Shown: positions 8,141 to 24,045 of the stretch, one piece after another
How positions within the stretch are numbered: the first letter of the stretch is position 1
Layout: each line of letters begins with the position of its first letter
Virus record (IMG/VR): IMGVR_UViG_3300021387_000796
Span: 32,001 to 96,000 of that record
Source of the DNA: a virus
Taxonomy: Duplodnaviria > Caudoviricetes
Direction: 5' to 3' (one strand)
Length of the DNA stretch: 64,000 nt
Notes under the pieces: generated by a model
Seen by the model: the letters and a program-made list of their open reading frames with translations, nothing else
What the model was told of the DNA's origin: nothing
Database searches by the model: none
Translations under genes and position numbers: made by a program

Positions 8141-8253
8141 GTGAGAGGACAGTATGCTACCAACATATTGATTTCATATTCCTTTATGAAATCTAACTCT
8201 TAACTATTTATGTTGTCATTGGTAGTGACATAAAAGTTAAAACATTTAAGGAA
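8141..8253 (+). ncRNA. Dual-loop structured RNA/leader cassette (element B)
   Basis: Promoter TTGATT-N17-TATATT (8107-8135). Loop CTACCAA (8157-8163) is complementary to downstream loop TTGGTAG (8219-8225). Loop TTCCTT (8179-8184) is complementary to AAGGAA (8248-8253). TAACTAT at 8201. Confidence 0.6.
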
Positions 8254-10335
8254 ATGAAACAAATGACTGAAATCAAAGATAATTTAAAATCGATATCGTG
8301 GATTCGTAAAAATATTAATGTAAAATTAAAAACGTTAAATAAAATAATAAAAATTCTAAATCTCAATCCCACAATTAGAACAAATAAATTTAACGAACAA
8401 ACGGAATATTATGATTTAGATAAAATAAAAGAATTTATAAATTCTCACGATGTTAATCGTATGTATAGTATTTCGCAAATTTCTAAAATAATAGGTGTTG
8501 GTCGTACATCAATAAATACAGTAATAAAATATTTAAATTTAGATAAATTTGAATTTTTATGCGATGAAGAATTGAATAAAATAAAACAATTTTATAAAGA
8601 GCATGAGAATGATTATAGATATTTTTTTCAAAACAAAACAAATCTTGAAAAATACGGTTCGTTGTGTCCGTTGGCAAATAAAGAAATTCAAAAGAAAGCA
8701 GAAGAAACTTGTTTGGAAAAATATGGTGTAAAAAATTATACCAAAACTGAAGAATTTAAAACAAAATTTAAACAAACTTCTTTAGAAAAATATGGTACAG
8801 AATTTCCTATGCAAAACGAAGATGTTAAAGAAAAAGGAAAGCAAACTTCATTAGAACGTTATGGTGTTGAATATGCATCTCAAAGTGAAGATTTTAGAAA
8901 AAGAGTTGAACGAACTAATTTAGAAAAATACAATACAAGATGTTCGCTTCATTCATATGAAGCAGAACAAAAAACTAAAGAAACTAACTTAAAATGTTAT
9001 GGTGTAGAAAATGTTTCACAATCAAATATCATTAAAGAAAAAGTTAAGAATACTAATTTAAAAAATTTCGGAGTTGAACATCCGATTCAAAATGAAAAAA
9101 TCAAAGAAAAGATTAAACAAACCAATCTCAAAAAGTTAGGAGTTGAATATCCTACACAAAATAAAGATATTATGAATAAAGTAAAACAAAGTAATCTTAA
9201 AAAATTTGGTGTAGAATGTTCTTTACAAAATAAAGAAATTAGAGATAAAGTGACACAAACTTATTTGAAAAAATTAGAACTTGCAAAATCTCAAAATTTA
9301 TATTGTGTTAAAGATTTAGCAATTATTTTTAATAAAAGCGAAAGTGCCATTACTATGGATTTGAAGCGTCTAAACATTGATGTTGTCAAATTTGAAAAAG
9401 ATTTTAGGTTGTATGTAAAACAATCTGATTTGAAAATTCTTGAAAATTATTTTATTGATACAGAATGTAGCGGAATATCTTATTCTGAAAAAGAAATAGT
9501 AGAATTTATAAAATCTATTTATTCAGACGAAATTATTGAAAATAGTAGAACTATTATTTCACCAAAAGAATTGGATATTTATATACCTCAAAAGAATTTA
9601 GCAATTGAATATGATGGATTGTATTGGCATGATGAAAATCATGTGGAAAATAAATATCATTTAAATAAAACAAAAGCATGTAATGAAAAAGGGATAGATT
9701 TGATTCATGTTTTTGAAGATGATTGGTTGTACAAAAAAGAAATTGTGAAATCTATGATTTCTAGCCGACTTGGTGTTTATAAAGAAAAGATTTTTGCTCG
9801 TAAATGTCAGATAAAGGAAATTGAAAAAGACCAAGCGAAAATATTTTTTGATGAGAATCATTTACAAGGGTTTGCGTACGGTGATTTGTATTTAGGACTT
9901 ATGTTTAACAATGAACTTGTTCAATGCATCTGTATGAATAAAAAAGGTTGGCATGATGGAAATGTAGAATTAACTCGCATGGCTACAAAATTGAATATTC
10001 AAGTAATTGGAGGATTCAGTAAATTGATGAAACATATTTCCGATTATATTGAATACAAATCAATCACAAGTTATGTGTATAAAGCATGGTTTAATGGAAA
10101 AGGATATATGGAAAGTGGATTCAAAGTAATCAAAGAAAATAATCCTTCTTATTTTTATATTGTAAATGGTAAACGAATTCATAAATCTAATTTTCGAAAA
10201 GACAAGATTAAGAAAATGTTCGAGAGAGGGGGATTAGAATTTTATGATTCAGATAAAACAGAACATGAAATTATGAAGAAAAACAAGATATATAGAATTT
10301 ATGATTGCGGAACTATGAAAGTAATTTACGAATAA
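8254..10335 (+). CDS. Free-standing homing endonuclease-like protein (about 9 TNLEKYGVE-type repeats + Hef-like PD-(D/E)XK domain)
   Basis: Tandem ~23-aa KYG repeats; ELDIYIPQKNLAIEYDGLYWH; IFARKC; IYDCG C-terminus. Confidence 0.75.
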   Translation: MKQMTEIKDNLKSISWIRKNINVKLKTLNKIIKILNLNPTIRTNKFNEQTEYYDLDKIKEFINSHDVNRMYSISQISKIIGVGRTSINTVIKYLNLDKFEFLCDEELNKIKQFYKEHENDYRYFFQNKTNLEKYGSLCPLANKEIQKKAEETCLEKYGVKNYTKTEEFKTKFKQTSLEKYGTEFPMQNEDVKEKGKQTSLERYGVEYASQSEDFRKRVERTNLEKYNTRCSLHSYEAEQKTKETNLKCYGVENVSQSNIIKEKVKNTNLKNFGVEHPIQNEKIKEKIKQTNLKKLGVEYPTQNKDIMNKVKQSNLKKFGVECSLQNKEIRDKVTQTYLKKLELAKSQNLYCVKDLAIIFNKSESAITMDLKRLNIDVVKFEKDFRLYVKQSDLKILENYFIDTECSGISYSEKEIVEFIKSIYSDEIIENSRTIISPKELDIYIPQKNLAIEYDGLYWHDENHVENKYHLNKTKACNEKGIDLIHVFEDDWLYKKEIVKSMISSRLGVYKEKIFARKCQIKEIEKDQAKIFFDENHLQGFAYGDLYLGLMFNNELVQCICMNKKGWHDGNVELTRMATKLNIQVIGGFSKLMKHISDYIEYKSITSYVYKAWFNGKGYMESGFKVIKENNPSYFYIVNGKRIHKSNFRKDKIKKMFERGGLEFYDSDKTEHEIMKKNKIYRIYDCGTMKVIYE

Positions 10336-12241: not shown

Positions 12242-12304
12242 AATTTTATTCTCCTATAATTAAAATTTTATTTACAATTTTATGTTTTAGATAGTTATAA
12301 AAAT

Positions 12305-14422: not shown

Positions 14423-14611
14423 GATTGAAAGGAATGATAGGCGGTCAACCTATTGATAGAATATCCTAGTTCTGTCTAACCTTTCAATCTTTTTTAACTA
14501 TCTTATATAAACATTAACTATTTATATCAGTATTGCAGATATGATAATTATGTAAAAATTTTAGGTGAATATATTGTAGACCTAAACTTTGATAAATTAT
14601 ATTAATAGGAT
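14423..14611 (+). ncRNA. Dual-loop structured RNA/leader cassette (element D)
   Basis: Outer stem 14423-14432/14480-14489 followed by a U-tract. Loop ATCCTA (14463-14468) is complementary to SD TAGGAT (14606-14611). Tandem TAACTAT at 14495 and 14515. Confidence 0.55.
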
Positions 14612-17940: not shown

Positions 17941-19323
17941 ATGGCAGAAATGACTGCGGAAGAAAAAGCAAAGGCTCGCTTGGCAAAGTTCCAAGAAGCA
18001 AAAAAGAAGGCTGAGGAAGCCAAACAACATGGGGATTTTCCAAAGGAAGATGTTCCTGATTTCAAAACATGTGTACTCAAAAAGGACCAAGCCAAAATCA
18101 TTAGATTGTTAGGCAATTCACCACTCATGCGTGAATCGGTTTATGACCCTCTTATTGTAAAACGTGCGTTCGTTAAAACTGATGATGATAAATGGACTAC
18201 AATTATCATGTCTGAGGACCGTGACCATCCTGTAAATAAGTTATGGCGAACAATTATTGGTAAGTATAAGTATGACAAAGAAAATAAGACAAAAAATTTC
18301 GAAAACAAAGGTAAACCTTCTTTTGAAAGATTTATCAGAAATGGTAAGAAAGTAGAAGATTGTTTGGCTTCAGAAAAAGGTATGATGACAGATACATTCT
18401 ATCTGTTTAATTGTTTGGACCGCACAGATTCATGGTGCGAGGAAAATAAGCATACCAAACTTCTCTGTTGGGATTCTACAACTAAAGAAGTTGATGGAAA
18501 GACTGTTGAATATCCAACATATGGAATCAAACCAAGTCTTTATAACAATATTTTCGATGAACAGTGTACTGCTCTTAATCGCATGTATGATGAATTTGAT
18601 GTAGTCGTAAAGCGTTTGAGCAAGAAACTTGGTGAATCTTGGATTCAGATTTTCTCACCTGAAGAAAAGTCAAAGATTTCACAGATTGGATTAGACCCAA
18701 ATAAAGTAACTATGAATTATCTCACAGAAGATGAGGAAAATTATGAGAAATATAAGTTGGAAGATATACCTTTTATTTCTCGTCCAACATCAGCATCTTA
18801 TGTAAACAAGGTGCTTGGTAAACTCATCAAGCAAGCAGATATTGATTTTGGTACTAATCTTCAGAGTGATTTTGCTGAATGGATTGAAAAAGAGAAGAAA
18901 GAATGGGAAGCCAAGAAAGCCGAAACAAAGGAAAGTGAACCAACAGAAGATGCTTCTACAGAAGTAGAATCAGAAGATGAAGAAGTTACAGAAGAAACAC
19001 CAAGTTTTGATTCTATGAAAACTGTTGAAACAGAATCTTCAGAAGACGATGAACTTCCGAGTGAGGTTGAAGAACCTACACCGACAGTAACAAAGAAAGT
19101 TGTAAAAACTGCAAAAACTGTTTTTGACCCACTTTCTCTCAAATCAGAATTTCCTTACATTGATAAATTGAGAGCCGAAGATTTAGCACTCATTACAGGT
19201 TATAATTCTGAAACTAGCGAACTGACATTTAAGGAAGGAACTGACCTCGCCGAATGTCCTTGCGGATGCACGATTGCTGACCCATTCCAGTCTTGCCCTA
19301 AATGTGGTGCGGTTTTTGGTTAA
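17941..19323 (+). CDS. Putative single-stranded DNA-binding protein (gp32-like) with acidic region and C-terminal Zn ribbon
   Basis: IIRLLG / YLFNCLDR / FDVVVKR pattern, long Glu/Asp-rich tail, own strong promoter (17837) and terminator. Confidence 0.55.
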   Translation: MAEMTAEEKAKARLAKFQEAKKKAEEAKQHGDFPKEDVPDFKTCVLKKDQAKIIRLLGNSPLMRESVYDPLIVKRAFVKTDDDKWTTIIMSEDRDHPVNKLWRTIIGKYKYDKENKTKNFENKGKPSFERFIRNGKKVEDCLASEKGMMTDTFYLFNCLDRTDSWCEENKHTKLLCWDSTTKEVDGKTVEYPTYGIKPSLYNNIFDEQCTALNRMYDEFDVVVKRLSKKLGESWIQIFSPEEKSKISQIGLDPNKVTMNYLTEDEENYEKYKLEDIPFISRPTSASYVNKVLGKLIKQADIDFGTNLQSDFAEWIEKEKKEWEAKKAETKESEPTEDASTEVESEDEEVTEETPSFDSMKTVETESSEDDELPSEVEEPTPTVTKKVVKTAKTVFDPLSLKSEFPYIDKLRAEDLALITGYNSETSELTFKEGTDLAECPCGCTIADPFQSCPKCGAVFG

Positions 19324-19345
19324 TAATAACTAATTATGAATAATT

Positions 19346-19377
19346 AAAGGAACGAGATTATTTCTCGTTCCTTTTTT
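19346..19377 (+). terminator. Intrinsic terminator
   Basis: AAAGGAACGAGA-ttatt-TCTCGTTCCTTTTTT. Confidence 0.85.
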
Positions 19378-19438
19378 ATTTCAATATTGATAAACAGAAC
19401 TATTTATTTTATATTTGTGTTGTATGGAGGAATTTTCT

Positions 19439-20434: not shown

Positions 20435-20522
20435 TAAAATCACTAGACAATTTTTATTTATTATGATAATGTAAAACTACAGATTTTCAAGGTCTGTAGT
20501 TTTTATTTATAAGGATAAATAT

Positions 20523-21944
20523 ATGAAAACAATCGAAGAACTAAAAGAACATTTTGAAGGTATTGAATTTTCAGACAAGTATATGGAAATTCTGAAATAT
20601 ATAAGGGAAGATGAGAATGCTAAACTCTCAATTCAAGGGAATGCTGGGTCAGGCAAGTCAACACTGCTTAAAATCATCAATTATATGTTTTCTGACGATG
20701 TTGAAAACAAGAGAATGAATGTTGCAATTGCTTCTTCCACAGGTGTCGCAAGTGCTTTGTTGAATAATGGAACAAATCTTGGTGCTACAACTATTCACTC
20801 GTTATTTCGCCTAAAACCAATTGACATTTTTGGTGCATTTACAAACTCTTCTTATTCACAGAAAGATTTGATTGGAAATATTGATTGCTTTATTTTTGAT
20901 GAAGTTTCTATGGTCAGTTGTGATATGTTCGATTATATAATGTCCATTATTCGTGTATGTCGAAGAGGAAAACCAACAAGAGTTATTTTGTTCGGGGACT
21001 GCTTGCAACTTCAATGTGTTGTTAAAATGGACGACCCTCAAGTAAAAGATTATTATATGACAAATTATAATGGAAATGTAGAATTCTTCTCATCGTTTGC
21101 ATTTAAGGATATGGGATTTGCTACGTTCTTGCTTACAAAAATATATCGTCAAAACGATACTGATGAAAAATTTAAAGATGTCTTGAATAGAATTCGTGTA
21201 TGTGAACAAACACAAGCCGACCTTGATTATTTGAATCAAAGGGTTATGAGTGAAGAAGATTATATTATGCAAAATGAATCTTTTTTGAGAATTGTGTCTA
21301 CAAACAAAGATGTGCAAAAATATAATCAGATTGCTTTGGACGCTATTGATGGAAAATTTATTTGTCTTACTGCTAAAATCAGCGGTAATTTCCGTGAAAC
21401 TTCAGAGTTTAAAAATGGTTTCTTTGCTGAAAAGATTTGGGTAAAAATCGGTTGTCCTGTTATGATTTTACGCAACGCATCTCCAAATGAAAATGGAATT
21501 CGTGATTATTATAACGGTAGTATGGGAACATTGATTTCTTGTAACGATGATTATGCTATTGTAGATTTGGGTGATAGAGAAGTAAAAGTTGAACGTTCAG
21601 TAACAAATAATTATGAATATGAACTTGTAGAAGAAAACGGACACACTGCCGTAAAAAGTAAAATAACAGGTTCTTATGATAATATCATGATTAAAGTTTG
21701 CAGTGCTTCAACTATTCATAAGACACAAGGACTTACACTTTCGAGAGCATATATAGACTATGGTAATTGGCTCCCAGATAATGGTTTGTATGTTGCTTTA
21801 AGTAGATTCCGTTCTATCAAGGATTTCGGGTTAGCAAAGCCTATAAAAATGCGAGATATTCACGCTACACAAGAAAGTCTAAATTATGTGAAAAATAATG
21901 AATTTTTTGAAAATGTGTATAATGAGATGTTTGGAAAAGATTAA
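20523..21944 (+). CDS. Pif1/RecD-like SF1B DNA helicase
   Basis: GNAGSGKST, TIHSLF, DEVSM, FGDCLQL, LTKIYRQ, TIHKTQGLT, YVALSR. Confidence 0.92.
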   Translation: MKTIEELKEHFEGIEFSDKYMEILKYIREDENAKLSIQGNAGSGKSTLLKIINYMFSDDVENKRMNVAIASSTGVASALLNNGTNLGATTIHSLFRLKPIDIFGAFTNSSYSQKDLIGNIDCFIFDEVSMVSCDMFDYIMSIIRVCRRGKPTRVILFGDCLQLQCVVKMDDPQVKDYYMTNYNGNVEFFSSFAFKDMGFATFLLTKIYRQNDTDEKFKDVLNRIRVCEQTQADLDYLNQRVMSEEDYIMQNESFLRIVSTNKDVQKYNQIALDAIDGKFICLTAKISGNFRETSEFKNGFFAEKIWVKIGCPVMILRNASPNENGIRDYYNGSMGTLISCNDDYAIVDLGDREVKVERSVTNNYEYELVEENGHTAVKSKITGSYDNIMIKVCSASTIHKTQGLTLSRAYIDYGNWLPDNGLYVALSRFRSIKDFGLAKPIKMRDIHATQESLNYVKNNEFFENVYNEMFGKD

Positions 21945-21991
21945 AATAAAACAATATTGATTTTAACAAAACATAACTATATTATTTAATT

Positions 21992-22158
21992 GATAAGCGA
22001 GATGTATTTCAAGTTGGTGCTTGAATTGACAGAATTCCTAATCTCATTTTGTCACATCTCGTTTATTTTTTTAACTATCTATTCTGAACATTAACTATTT
22101 TAATGTGAAAGTCGCACCAACGACTTTAAAGGTAAAATTATTTTATAGGAGATTAGGA
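21992..22158 (+). ncRNA. Dual-loop structured RNA/leader cassette (element C)
   Basis: Outer stem 21992-22005/22054-22067 plus U-tract. GTTGGTGC (22013-22020) is complementary to GCACCAAC (22114-22121). Loop TCCTAATCTC (22036-22045) is complementary to GAGATTAGGA (22149-22158). Tandem TAACTAT at 22072 and 22092. Confidence 0.7.
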
Positions 22159-22160
22159 TT

Positions 22161-23495
22161 ATGAATTCATTAACTCGAATGATGTCTTACGACAAGGCAA
22201 AAAGTAAAAATCAAGAACAGTGTAATTGTGTAGAATGTGTTTCTGTTGAAAATGCAGAATTAAAAAATCAAACGATTGAATACCCAAAATTATCGGAAGA
22301 AGAAATCGAACAAATTATTAATGAAATATATTCTTATAAAGATGAAAAGACAAAAACTTTTATTAGAAAAGCATTAAGAATTCATGGTAATAGATATGAT
22401 TATTCAAATGCTGTTTATGTGAATACTAAAATAAAAATTGAAATAATTTGTAAAATAAATAATCATAAAAATTTTTTGCAACGACCGAATGACCATTTGA
22501 AAGGTTGTGGATGTAAAGAATGTGCTAAAAAATATTTTGGTGCAAGTAAAAGATTAACATTGGAAGAATTTATAAAAAAATCAAACGAAATACAAGGTGA
22601 AGGGAGATATGATTATTCGAAAGTTGAATATAAAAATACGAATACTAAAGTATGTATAATTTGCAATAATCACGATGAACCTTATGAATTTTGGCAAACT
22701 CCTAGCAATCATTTAAACGGACACGGTTGCCCAAAATGTGCAAGAATTGAAAAATTAACCTTGAAAGAATTTATTGAAAAAGCGAACAGAGTTCATGGTG
22801 TAGGAACTTATGATTATTCTGAATCAAAATATATTAACACAATAACTCCTATTAAAATAATTTGTTTAATTCATGGTGGTTTTTGGCAGACACCCAATGT
22901 TCATTTAGGTGGAAGTGGATGTCCTAAATGTGCAAATGAACTTGTACATGAACGACAAAAATTAACCTTGAAAGAATTTATCGAAAAAGCAAATGAGGTA
23001 CAAGGGATTGGAAGATATGATTATTCAAAAGTAAAATATATAAATGCACATACTAAAGTAATTATAATTTGTCCGAAGCATGGTGAATTTTCTCAATTAC
23101 CTTATGCTCATTTAAAAGGACGAGGATGTATGTTATGTTGTGAAAAATCAAAAGGTGAAACAAAAATTAGAATATTTTTAATTAATAACAACATATCATT
23201 TGAACAAGAAAAACGATTTAAAGAATGTAGAGATAAAAATCCACTACCTTTCGATTTTTATTTACCGCAATATAATTTATGTATTGAATTTGACGGTGAA
23301 CAACATTTCAAACCATTCGCTTTTAATTCTAGGAAAGTAAGTGATGATATAAAATTAGAAAATCTCAAAAAGGTTCAAAAACATGACCAAATGAAAAATG
23401 ATTATTGTAAAAAGAACGGAATTACTCTTTTGAGAATTAACGATATTAGAAAAATTAATAAAATATTGAATGATTATTTTAAGATAAAAAATTAG
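22161..23495 (+). CDS. Free-standing endonuclease with four Zn-binding (DUF723-like) repeats and a C-terminal Vsr/DUF559-like nuclease
   Basis: Four YDYS..Y.N...K..IIC..HG.F.Q.P..HL.G.GC..C repeats; LPFDFYLPQYNLCIEFDGEQHF. Confidence 0.75.
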   Translation: MNSLTRMMSYDKAKSKNQEQCNCVECVSVENAELKNQTIEYPKLSEEEIEQIINEIYSYKDEKTKTFIRKALRIHGNRYDYSNAVYVNTKIKIEIICKINNHKNFLQRPNDHLKGCGCKECAKKYFGASKRLTLEEFIKKSNEIQGEGRYDYSKVEYKNTNTKVCIICNNHDEPYEFWQTPSNHLNGHGCPKCARIEKLTLKEFIEKANRVHGVGTYDYSESKYINTITPIKIICLIHGGFWQTPNVHLGGSGCPKCANELVHERQKLTLKEFIEKANEVQGIGRYDYSKVKYINAHTKVIIICPKHGEFSQLPYAHLKGRGCMLCCEKSKGETKIRIFLINNNISFEQEKRFKECRDKNPLPFDFYLPQYNLCIEFDGEQHFKPFAFNSRKVSDDIKLENLKKVQKHDQMKNDYCKKNGITLLRINDIRKINKILNDYFKIKN

Positions 23496-23511
23496 AGAAA
23501 TTAAAAAAAAC

Positions 23512-23540
23512 AAACCCTAGACTCAACATCTAGGGTTTTT
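23512..23540. terminator. Bidirectional terminator
   Basis: AAACCCTAGA...TCTAGGGTTTT between convergent genes. Confidence 0.75.
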
Positions 23541-23544
23541 CTAA

Positions 23545-24045
23545 TTATTCTACACTTCTTGTATAAATTGCTTTTATACTAACTGAACTTATTTCTTCAT
23601 TCAATGGAATTGTAAAAATCTGCGGATTATTAGTGTATTCAATTTCACCATAAACCCACTTCTCAAAAGTATAATTTACGGTAACTTCCTCATCCTCAAT
23701 TTCTTCTTTGAGTGAATAATTAGGTGTCTGCATATAAAGTGTGCTTCCTCTTGTACAACTCGGAACAGAAGTAGGATATGCTATGCAGTTTGGAACTTCG
23801 ATTTCTTCACCACTTTCTTCATCAATATGATATGATTTTATTTCAAACGCTACGGTTGTTTCTTCCGTAGGTTCTGTAAGAACATTATCGTGAATTTTTG
23901 AAATCATCATGGGTTCACTACCTTTTTCAGTAGTAATCATATTTACCGCTTTTTCCATAGAAGTAGCGTTTATATAAACATCTTCATTTTCAAATCTTGA
24001 ATTTGTGATTGGATAAATTGCTTTGTATTGATTGATTATTGCCAT
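23545..24045 (-). CDS. Hypothetical protein (possible virion component)
   Basis: GAGGAG RBS; beta-rich C-terminus; late-motif operon. Confidence 0.5.
   Translation of the reverse strand: MAIINQYKAIYPITNSRFENEDVYINATSMEKAVNMITTEKGSEPMMISKIHDNVLTEPTEETTVAFEIKSYHIDEESGEEIEVPNCIAYPTSVPSCTRGSTLYMQTPNYSLKEEIEDEEVTVNYTFEKWVYGEIEYTNNPQIFTIPLNEEISSVSIKAIYTRSVE

Follow-up and report, generated by a model that had tools for sequence, protein, structure and literature searches.

Organization of the Cassette C Locus

The stretch of DNA analyzed here, referred to below as the window, spans 64,000 nucleotides and corresponds to bases 32001-96000 of a 218,066-bp IMG/VR virus record with a completeness estimate of 92%. 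The window presents a G+C content of approximately 29% and strong Shine-Dalgarno (SD) sequences. The region considered, termed cassette C, is intergenic, lying between a gene encoding a PIF1/AAA_30 helicase (20523-21944) and a 444-codon gene (22161-23495). When positions 20500-23600 were compared by megablast with 50,697 phage records, no match was obtained. The features assigned to the locus, numbered according to the window, are as follows.

21939-23543, + strand: insertion unit, delimited by the flanks of relatives, comprising the putative promoter, predicted small RNA, candidate TAACTAT promoters, leader, nuclease gene and terminator
21957-21985, + strand: sigma70-like promoter, from reading of the sequence, with -35 TTGATT (21957-21962), a 17-nt spacer and -10 TATTAT (21980-21985)
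21992-22072, + strand: predicted small RNA of ~77-81 nt forming a three-way junction, from folding, a covariance model and covarying stems
22013-22020, + strand: loop 1 or 'barcode', namely the UUGGUG loop with its closing G and C, a perfect complement of leader loop positions 22114-22121
22036-22045, + strand: loop 2 or anti-SD, the entire loop of hairpin 2, a perfect complement of 22149-22158
22072-22098, + strand: tandem TAACTAT (22072-22078 and 22092-22098), candidate promoters of the nuclease mRNA, from motif enrichment and position
22108-22127, + strand: leader hairpin of the nuclease mRNA, from folding, with stem AAAGUCG/CGACUUU and loop CACCAA at 22115-22120
22147-22163, + strand: translation initiation region, with SD AGGAG (22147-22151), anti-SD target (22149-22158) and ATG (22161-22163)
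22161-23495, + strand: gene for a homing-endonuclease-like protein of 444 aa, which combines a treble-clef zinc finger with a CapR-like domain and, C-terminally, a nuclease-like domain
23512-23538, no strand assigned: bidirectional terminator-like hairpin closing the unit, from a terminator scan

The product of the 444-codon gene matches Pfam DUF4379 (E 6.9e-9), as well as PHROGs 559 ('HNH endonuclease', 2.2e-84), 681 ('endonuclease'), 9084 ('homing endonuclease') and 7140 ('intron encoded nuclease'). All three full-length paralogues of this nuclease in the genome are accompanied by a cassette.

In three related contigs (L077, L078, and L079), each encoding a helicase protein 92% identical to that of the window, the 1.6-kb unit is missing. 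Identity of the flanking DNA amounts to 94-99% for L077 and to 73-86% for L078 and L079, with the interval between the equivalents of window positions 21938 and 23544 being occupied by a 324-bp segment in L077 and by a methylase gene in L078 and L079. Because the relatives differ in the whole stretch between conserved flanks, the cassette C unit was gained or lost as one piece. As such, the gene shows the behavior of a free-standing homing endonuclease, i.e., a nuclease gene inserted between other genes and found in only some of a set of close relatives, with cleavage and homing being predicted activities. The loop words of the predicted small RNA were sought in the empty-site alleles of these relatives and were not found.

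The site past the helicase gene appears as an indel hot spot, presenting three different occupants in close relatives, namely, the nuclease cassette, a small ORF and a DNA methylase (window 21938-23544 as compared with L077:5417-5740 and L078:5417-6192). Elsewhere, at L077:479-2864, that contig contains ~2.4 kb of extra DNA relative to window positions 19120-19387, found between segments that are 91-94% identical.

A Predicted Small RNA Bordered by Promoter- and Terminator-Like Signals

In the predicted structure, a 14-bp outer stem is formed by pairing of 21992-22005 with 22054-22067, with two of the 14 pairs being G.U, and a T-rich tract extends over 22061-22072. Hairpin 1 (22008-22025) presents the loop UUGGUG, while hairpin 2 (22028-22053) presents the 10-nt loop UCCUAAUCUC. 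A 91-nt RNA containing these elements was calculated to fold with an energy of -28.3 kcal/mol (z = -5.96), a stability reached by none of 200 shuffled sequences. When cassette C was scored with a covariance model of the cassette family (R1), the + strand yielded 84.8 bits, as opposed to 19.9 bits for the - strand. Together with the G.U pairs, this asymmetry assigns the structure to a + strand transcript.

The putative sigma70-like promoter is the best hexamer pair within 70 nt upstream and matches nine of 12 hexamer positions. Position 21957, from which cassette C was counted in the first-pass annotation, is where its -35 hexamer starts. Six nt separate its -10 element from the predicted transcription start, G21992, with which the outer stem begins. 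The arrangement in cassette C conforms to sigma70-type geometry, in which the hexamers lie 16-18 nt apart and the -10 element ends ~7 nt before the start. Indeed, the best sigma70-like pair ends 5-8 nt ahead of the first stem base in eight of the 10 cassettes described below, and the sigma70-like promoter of one of these, cassette B, was picked up by the promoter scan itself.

At the other end of the predicted RNA, T5 follows the last position of the 14-bp stem (22067), providing the G+C-containing stem directly before a U-tract that is expected of an intrinsic (Rho-independent) terminator. Since the terminator scan employed allows only for loops of 3-8 nt, the cassette C stem and U-tract are not listed in its output. 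It is not common for a terminator to enclose a 60-nt three-way junction, and such a terminator may be leaky. Still, the geometry of the promoter and terminator is consistent with a discrete RNA of ~80 nt with predicted ends, as had been proposed in the first-pass annotation on the basis of the outer stem and U-tract; the stem, T tract and flanking signals, as modeled here, all agree with that proposal.

When the whole window was searched against Rfam at the gathering score, no family was reached. A search of positions 21900-22200 at E values up to 10 likewise revealed nothing relevant, as did ARAGORN. The cassette RNA is, as such, an RNA family missing from Rfam.

TAACTAT Motifs as Candidate Phage Promoters

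Both copies of TAACTAT in cassette C fall between the small RNA and its two targets in the leader, such that the latter lie downstream of the tandem motif, as stated earlier in the first-pass annotation. The motif occurs 32 times in the window, as compared to 15.4 expected occurrences, with none of 100 shuffles reaching 32. Across the genome, 49 SD-led ORFs present TAACTAT no more than 110 nt upstream of the start codon. The motif is found ahead of several nuclease genes, of a baseplate wedge gene and of the gene for the tail sheath (window 12297, minus strand). No regular -35 partner accompanies TAACTAT. Judging from position alone, TAACTAT is consistent with a phage-specific class of promoter that is probably late. 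The putative assignment of the nuclease mRNA as 'late' finds indirect support in the same motif preceding the tail sheath and baseplate wedge genes.

The extended form TAACTAT(T/C)T is strongly over-represented 20-60 nt upstream of SD-led genes, often directly past a terminator, with examples in the window at 12297 (-), 6596 (-), 38903 (+) and 51890 (+). At four sites, TGTCAAG is found ~19 nt upstream of TAACTAT.

Two Points of Complementarity between the Small RNA and the Nuclease Leader

The first-pass annotation had also described two perfect complements, of 8 and 10 nt, linking the small RNA to the nuclease leader. Both proved to be exact. In the first, GTTGGTGC (22013-22020) is perfectly complementary to GCACCAAC (22114-22121), a match that corresponds to two 6-nt hairpin loops (UUGGUG and CACCAA) and the G-C pairs that close them. 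The leader hairpin presenting the second of these loops forms in both a 236-nt and a 101-nt context, and its stem and loop covary among cassettes. In the second, TCCTAATCTC (22036-22045) is perfectly complementary to GAGATTAGGA (22149-22158), a target that begins inside the SD and stops 3 nt ahead of the ATG.

Considering the loops only, the duplex of loop 2 with the SD region was calculated at -15.6 kcal/mol. For loop 1, the cognate duplex was the strongest both for cassette C (-14.1 kcal/mol vs. -5.3 kcal/mol or weaker for non-cognate partners) and for cassette D, a second copy in the genome (-11.9 kcal/mol vs. -7.5 kcal/mol or weaker). In these comparisons, loop-only duplexes and exact-complement matrices were used instead of a full-length RNAduplex matrix, which ignores internal structure and proved to be non-discriminating.

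In dinucleotide-preserving shuffles of the leader, the probability of obtaining the 8-mer was 0.007 and that of obtaining the 10-mer was 0.006, with both appearing at once in none of 20,000 shuffles. A lone 10-nt complement in the same geometry can be found at ~1% of window positions, and so weight is given to the paired matches and to their covariation, rather than to either match alone. Across the whole 218-kb genome, both target words occur together solely at the cognate leader.

Whether the leader was folded by itself or within the full intergenic RNA, the SD was not engaged with any upstream strand in a stable local hairpin. The complement of the SD is instead positioned ~110 nt away, inside a loop.

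A Family of Two-Loop Cassettes

Ten cassettes of the same two-loop design were identified in this genome and in five related phage contigs. In this genome, these correspond to A (genome position 14030), B (window 14423), C, and D (genome position 199460, minus strand). A structure scan of both genome strands, seeking a stem of at least 7 bp around exactly two hairpins followed by a U-tract, blindly returned exactly A-D and two weak others. Copies E, F, G, and H, located in related contigs, were found with the covariance model, which was built from A-D, and orthologues of A were located by protein-guided searches. In each of A-D, one TAACTAT appears at once after the RNA, followed by a spacer of 13 or 16 nt (16 nt in A) and a second TAACTAT. 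More generally, cassettes with a U-tract also bear TAACTAT directly behind that tract.

Besides cassette C, two members of the family are found in the window.

8142-8262, + strand: cassette I, of the two-loop design, before a gene (8263-10335) of another homing-endonuclease family (PHROG 3339/559)
14423-14495, + strand: cassette B (whole cassette to 14622), an orphan junction RNA whose loop 2 (AUCCUA) matches the SD (UAGGAU)

In cassette I, loop 1 (CUACCAA) matches the leader loop (UUGGUAG) and loop 2 (UUCCUU) matches the SD (AAGGAA). The gene downstream probably begins at the ATG at 8263 and not at 8254. A sigma70-like promoter (TTGATT, 17 nt, TATATT) is present, the 3' arm of the outer stem shares bases with TAACTAT, and no U-tract follows the junction (8142-8201). 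As no U-tract is found, the junction in this instance would be co-transcribed with the leader or processed, and this cassette better fits action in cis.

In cassette B, the RNA, the promoter and the tandem TAACTAT are intact, while the match to the leader loop has been lost and the ORF that follows (94 aa) shows no family match and is not a nuclease. A relative (L020) bears an RNA identical to that of cassette B, whereas in another (L087), a B-type RNA, cassette H, precedes a nuclease gene and displays a perfect 7-nt loop match. These observations bear on the earlier claim that the polarity of the loops in cassette C is swapped relative to that in cassette B. A swap is seen most clearly relative to the cassette at 8142-8253, where CUACCAA is carried by the RNA and UUGGUAG by the leader; for B, no matching leader loop exists in this genome.

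Targets unlinked to the orphan RNAs were also sought. For B, TTGACCG was found in a hairpin loop in its own genome only at its own reverse complement, while for cassette G, GTAACGA appeared at chance level in G002 and G001 and never in a hairpin loop. With no hairpin-loop target away from B or G, nothing speaks for action at a distance.

Upstream regions of more distant nuclease homologues (L066-L076, 32-45% identity) contained no junction, as judged by the structure scan or by R1. A scan of IMG/VR for the tandem-promoter pattern yielded 59 loci, nearly all chance occurrences in AT-rich viruses, with L020 and L025 being the only relatives. In a scan of IMG/VR for the outer-stem pattern, the loci among the matches listed were unrelated and R1 found nothing real.

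The constant adjacency of the RNA and a nuclease gene raises the possibility that the RNA serves as a guide or cofactor that binds the nuclease and directs or licenses DNA cleavage. Such adjacency is the sole support for this idea, which the first-pass annotation had also judged to be unsupported. A guide would be expected to match the nuclease-free alleles, these being the expected substrates of a homing enzyme; the loops instead match the element's own leader, and the loop words are absent from the empty-site alleles, as noted above. Moreover, one of the loops corresponds to an anti-SD, and the design is found ahead of two nuclease families that are unrelated, as well as in orphans with no nuclease. 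A guide role is accordingly deemed extremely improbable.

Two changes affecting nuclease genes of the family were also noted. In cassette A (L002:1470-1621, equivalent to G000:C1:14030-14181), the SD has been lost through a deletion of ~16 nt between direct repeats (TTAAAATTAT), relative to L064 and L065. These orthologues retain AGGAGA and an 11-nt anti-SD match, and the nuclease ORF of cassette A is still open. The 529-aa nuclease of cassette D, encoded outside the window (G000:C1:197712-199301, minus strand), contains an internally duplicated zinc-finger repeat region, with query residues 64-270 matching twice.

Covariation of the Loops and Their Targets

Loop 1 differs from cassette to cassette, the sequences found among A, C, D, E, F, H, and I being UUUUCGC, UUGGUG(C), UUGGACG, UUAGUAC, UCGUCAC, UUGCUAG, and CUACCAA. 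In each case, loop 1 is the exact reverse complement of the loop of the cassette's own leader hairpin. Because the RNA and its target are encoded on the same strand, such matches must be maintained by selection, rendering the covariation informative.

Six whole cassettes were aligned with MAFFT, which is blind to structure, and the loops fell into register. In these six cassettes, 100% of the cells of the 7-bp kissing helix are paired, with both sides having changed in six of the seven pairs. Pairing extended to 90.9% of the cells when all 41 pairs were considered (outer stem, both hairpins, kiss, anti-SD and leader hairpin), as compared to 76.1% in shuffled controls (with none of 500 reaching the observed value) and 35-47% when the partners were slid by one to three columns. 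An alignment generated by the model (A3) was left out of these counts, as it mixes true copies with antisense and chance matches.

The anti-SD contact likewise covaries. In the orthologues of A, AUUUUAAUCUC faces GAGAUUAAAAU, while in C, UCCUAAUCUC faces GAGAUUAGGA, corresponding to a compensatory difference of CC/GG to UU/AA, with the orthologues keeping an 11-nt match. Loop 2 is nearly the same in C, E, F, and G, which have CUAAUCUC in common. With loop 1 being variable and loop 2 being common to these four cassettes, loop 1 can be considered as the barcode and loop 2 as a largely generic blocker of the SD. As such, the two-point contact put forward in the first-pass annotation, i.e., a kiss and an anti-SD pairing, is strongly supported, given that both contacts are maintained by compensatory changes across independent cassettes.

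These findings were weighed against two explanations that do not call for a regulatory RNA. In the first, the stem and U-tract past the end of the helicase gene, the usual place for a terminator, simply end the helicase operon ahead of an ordinary promoter, and the complementarities reflect chance, a lone 10-nt complement occurring at ~1% of positions in this AT-rich window, or are by-products of cassette duplication. Duplication would copy rather than co-vary, and six different loop 1 sequences match their own leaders; chance is countered by the joint appearance of both matches in 0 of 20,000 shuffles, and relatives with the same helicase lack the whole element. It is hence hardly conceivable that nothing more than a terminator and a promoter are present.

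In the second, the element acts at the level of DNA, with the 8-bp inverted repeats around TAACTAT serving as operator half-sites, for instance for a nuclease autorepressor, or as recombination or homing sites. The two words are indeed inverted repeats found on either side of putative promoters, a pair of sites bound by one protein would likewise remain the same from copy to copy, and I-TevI is able to repress its own late promoter via an operator (PMC2988022). Yet, the words always appear at the apex of local hairpins with independently covarying stems, while the G.U pairs and the strand asymmetry of the model scores are indicative of RNA. Furthermore, the second complement hits the SD, which would be meaningless in DNA, and the loop words are missing from empty-site alleles, arguing against homing-site mimicry. 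A DNA-level element is thus considered to be very unlikely. Together, a DNA operator, a plain terminator and a guide RNA leave these alternatives with only a small share of the overall probability.

Proposed Mode of Action

Given how the matched design recurs with other barcodes, the cassette C RNA is very probably a real and uncatalogued RNA switch that restrains the nuclease. In the reading that we favor, at a probability of roughly 0.6, it is a same-strand antisense RNA resembling P1 c4 that blocks translation of the adjacent nuclease gene. The structure, the two complementarities with their covariation, and the association with the nuclease gene and with an insertion unit are shown, whereas promoter and terminator function, action in trans, repression and timing are what we infer.

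According to this reading, transcription would begin at ~21992 from the sigma70-like, host-type promoter, and the transcript would fold as a three-way junction and end at the outer stem and U-tract, giving rise to a free RNA of ~80 nt. The nuclease mRNA would start separately, at either of the downstream TAACTAT promoters, and would carry a leader with the hairpin and the SD. The loop of hairpin 1 would dock first on the leader hairpin loop in a loop-loop kiss, after which the 10-nt loop of hairpin 2 would cover the SD region and keep the ribosome off. The nuclease would thereby be made late or only above a threshold. Transcripts reading through the terminator would carry both partners and be silenced in cis via the same contacts. 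Loop 1 would act as a per-cassette barcode against cross-talk between paralogous cassettes, with loop 2 being partly generic, since the SD must be matched.

The main rival to an antisense RNA acting in trans is a silencer that acts only in cis, akin to those of T4. Here, the junction would never be free, and its loops would fold back on the leader hairpin and SD of read-through transcripts entering from the helicase operon or from the sigma70-like promoter, making these untranslatable. Transcripts started at TAACTAT, which do not contain the junction, would be translated, confining the nuclease to the time at which that promoter class is active. This view gains from the placement of TAACTAT exactly between the anti-SD and the SD, as for I-TevI, segB, mobE, e and soc (PMC2988022, PMC3014915), from the presence of TAACTAT upstream of virion genes as well, from cassette I with no U-tract, and from the RNA always adjoining its target, no unlinked target having been found for orphans B and G. 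On the other hand, a dedicated promoter 5-8 nt before the junction, as seen in eight of the 10 cassettes, would generate the very read-through to be neutralized, and the U-tract stem of most cassettes makes little sense for such neutralization. In addition, known cases employ a simple local hairpin, with no kissing loop and no loop-borne anti-SD ~100 nt away, while folding within one molecule needs no barcoded loop. Action solely in cis is hence held to be unlikely. The dedicated promoter and terminator argue for action of the antisense RNA in trans, with cassette I and the absence of unlinked targets fitting action in cis equally well.

A broader proposal, which is offered tentatively and at somewhat less than an even chance, is that the RNA and its leader together constitute a barcoded and orthogonal silencer module belonging to the mobile endonuclease cassette. 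Silencer RNA made from the early, host-type promoter would fill the cell and would have to be out-produced by transcription from the late phage promoter, providing each nuclease with its own timer or threshold. Diversification of the barcode would allow several paralogous nuclease cassettes to share one genome without cross-silencing.

Comparison with Known RNA-Based Control Systems

The C4 RNA of phages P1 and P7 pairs with its message at two places, covering a ribosome binding site at one of them, and heteroimmunity of these phages results from matched changes in the RNA and its target. The cassette C RNA resembles C4 (Rfam RF01695) in being a structured RNA of ~77 nt encoded upstream of its target on the same strand, in offering two short exposed segments that pair with two sites in the message, one over the ribosome binding site, as is found in cassette C, and in differing in specificity between relatives through matched RNA and target changes. 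The systems differ in several respects. C4 targets the icd/ant antirepressor operon (immI) of a temperate phage, whereas cassette C targets a homing-endonuclease-like gene in a 218-kb record that presents no evidence of lysogeny or immunity control. C4 is cut from the same transcript as its target, whereas the cassette C RNA has an apparent promoter and terminator of its own, as well as a separate promoter for the target. Finally, unlike in C4, the first contact in cassette C is a true kiss between two hairpin loops. Searches with the Rfam C4 model (RF01695, gathering score 45 bits) at E values up to 10 yielded no match in positions 21900-22200 or in the whole 218-kb genome, and membership in this family was rejected for lack of sequence or structure homology. 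In function, the c4 RNA of P1/P7 is the system that comes closest, and it serves as an antisense precedent (Citron and Schuster, 1990, as cited in PMC8198154).

Occlusion of the ribosome binding site typically keeps phage homing-endonuclease genes silent until late (PMC2988022, PMC3014915). In the RBS hairpins of T4-type systems (I-TevI, I-TevII, I-TevIII, segB, and Aeh1 mobE, as well as T4 e, soc, and 49), the gene class is the same as in cassette C and the SD is occluded by RNA pairing, as is proposed for the latter. In both, moreover, the inhibitory strand is separated from the SD by a phage-specific promoter, whose transcripts escape control (PMC2988022, PMC3014915); in cassette C, that promoter would be the candidate TAACTAT. 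The T4-type elements each consist of one local hairpin that acts in cis on transcripts reading through, and one stem-loop containing the SD was not found in cassette C. There, the inhibitory strand is instead located in the loop of a separate three-way-junction RNA ~100 nt upstream, accompanied by promoter-like and terminator-like signals of its own, a second (kissing) contact and a copy-specific barcode.

With the antisense RNAs that control plasmid copy number, the likeness lies in the kissing-loop start. CopA/CopT of R1 and RNAI/RNAII of ColE1 begin with a loop-loop contact, followed by a block of translation or a structural change. Such RNAs are read from the strand opposite the target, such that complementarity comes free, whereas the cassette C RNA and its target are encoded on the same strand. 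In type I toxin-antitoxin systems, a labile antisense RNA is combined with a stable toxin message, leading to post-segregational killing, and in RalR/RalA, the small RNA limits translation of a DNA-cutting toxin. Cassette C resembles the latter in that a small RNA would limit translation of a potentially harmful DNA-cutting enzyme, yet differs in being part of a phage genome, in involving a homing-type enzyme and in showing no sign of addiction or of differential stability. In the case of RNAII of plasmid pMV158, also a copy-control RNA, recognition begins with a 6-7-nt loop-loop contact (PMC4485353).

Known restraints on phage homing endonucleases are simple cis hairpins and autorepression, and a cassette-borne small RNA would represent a new layer of control. 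In a full-text literature search of incomplete coverage, no report of a small RNA controlling a homing endonuclease was found; if the silencer module proposal is true, the cassette RNA would be the first known trans-acting small RNA over such enzymes. Pairing of a host-type promoter for the RNA with a phage-type promoter for the mRNA would yield an RNA timer or threshold, a reading in agreement with the late-only translation habit of phage homing-endonuclease genes (PMC2988022, PMC3014915). The cassettes would also amount to a natural set of orthogonal RNA repressor/target pairs, with six or more natural compensatory barcode pairs offering a ready-made experiment on kissing-loop specificity, and orthogonal RNA/leader pairs could become compact translational switches. 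Three-way-junction 'terminators' that precede nuclease genes in large gut/rumen-type phage contigs merit annotation as regulatory RNAs.

A simpler arrangement was noted elsewhere in the genome, outside the window, at a PHROG 3339 homing-endonuclease-like gene (G000:C1:193429-193660, minus strand). At this position, CATCAATATA is found on both sides of a TAACTAT motif, while its complement, TATATTGATG, abuts the SD, an arrangement that looks like a T4-type cis hairpin.
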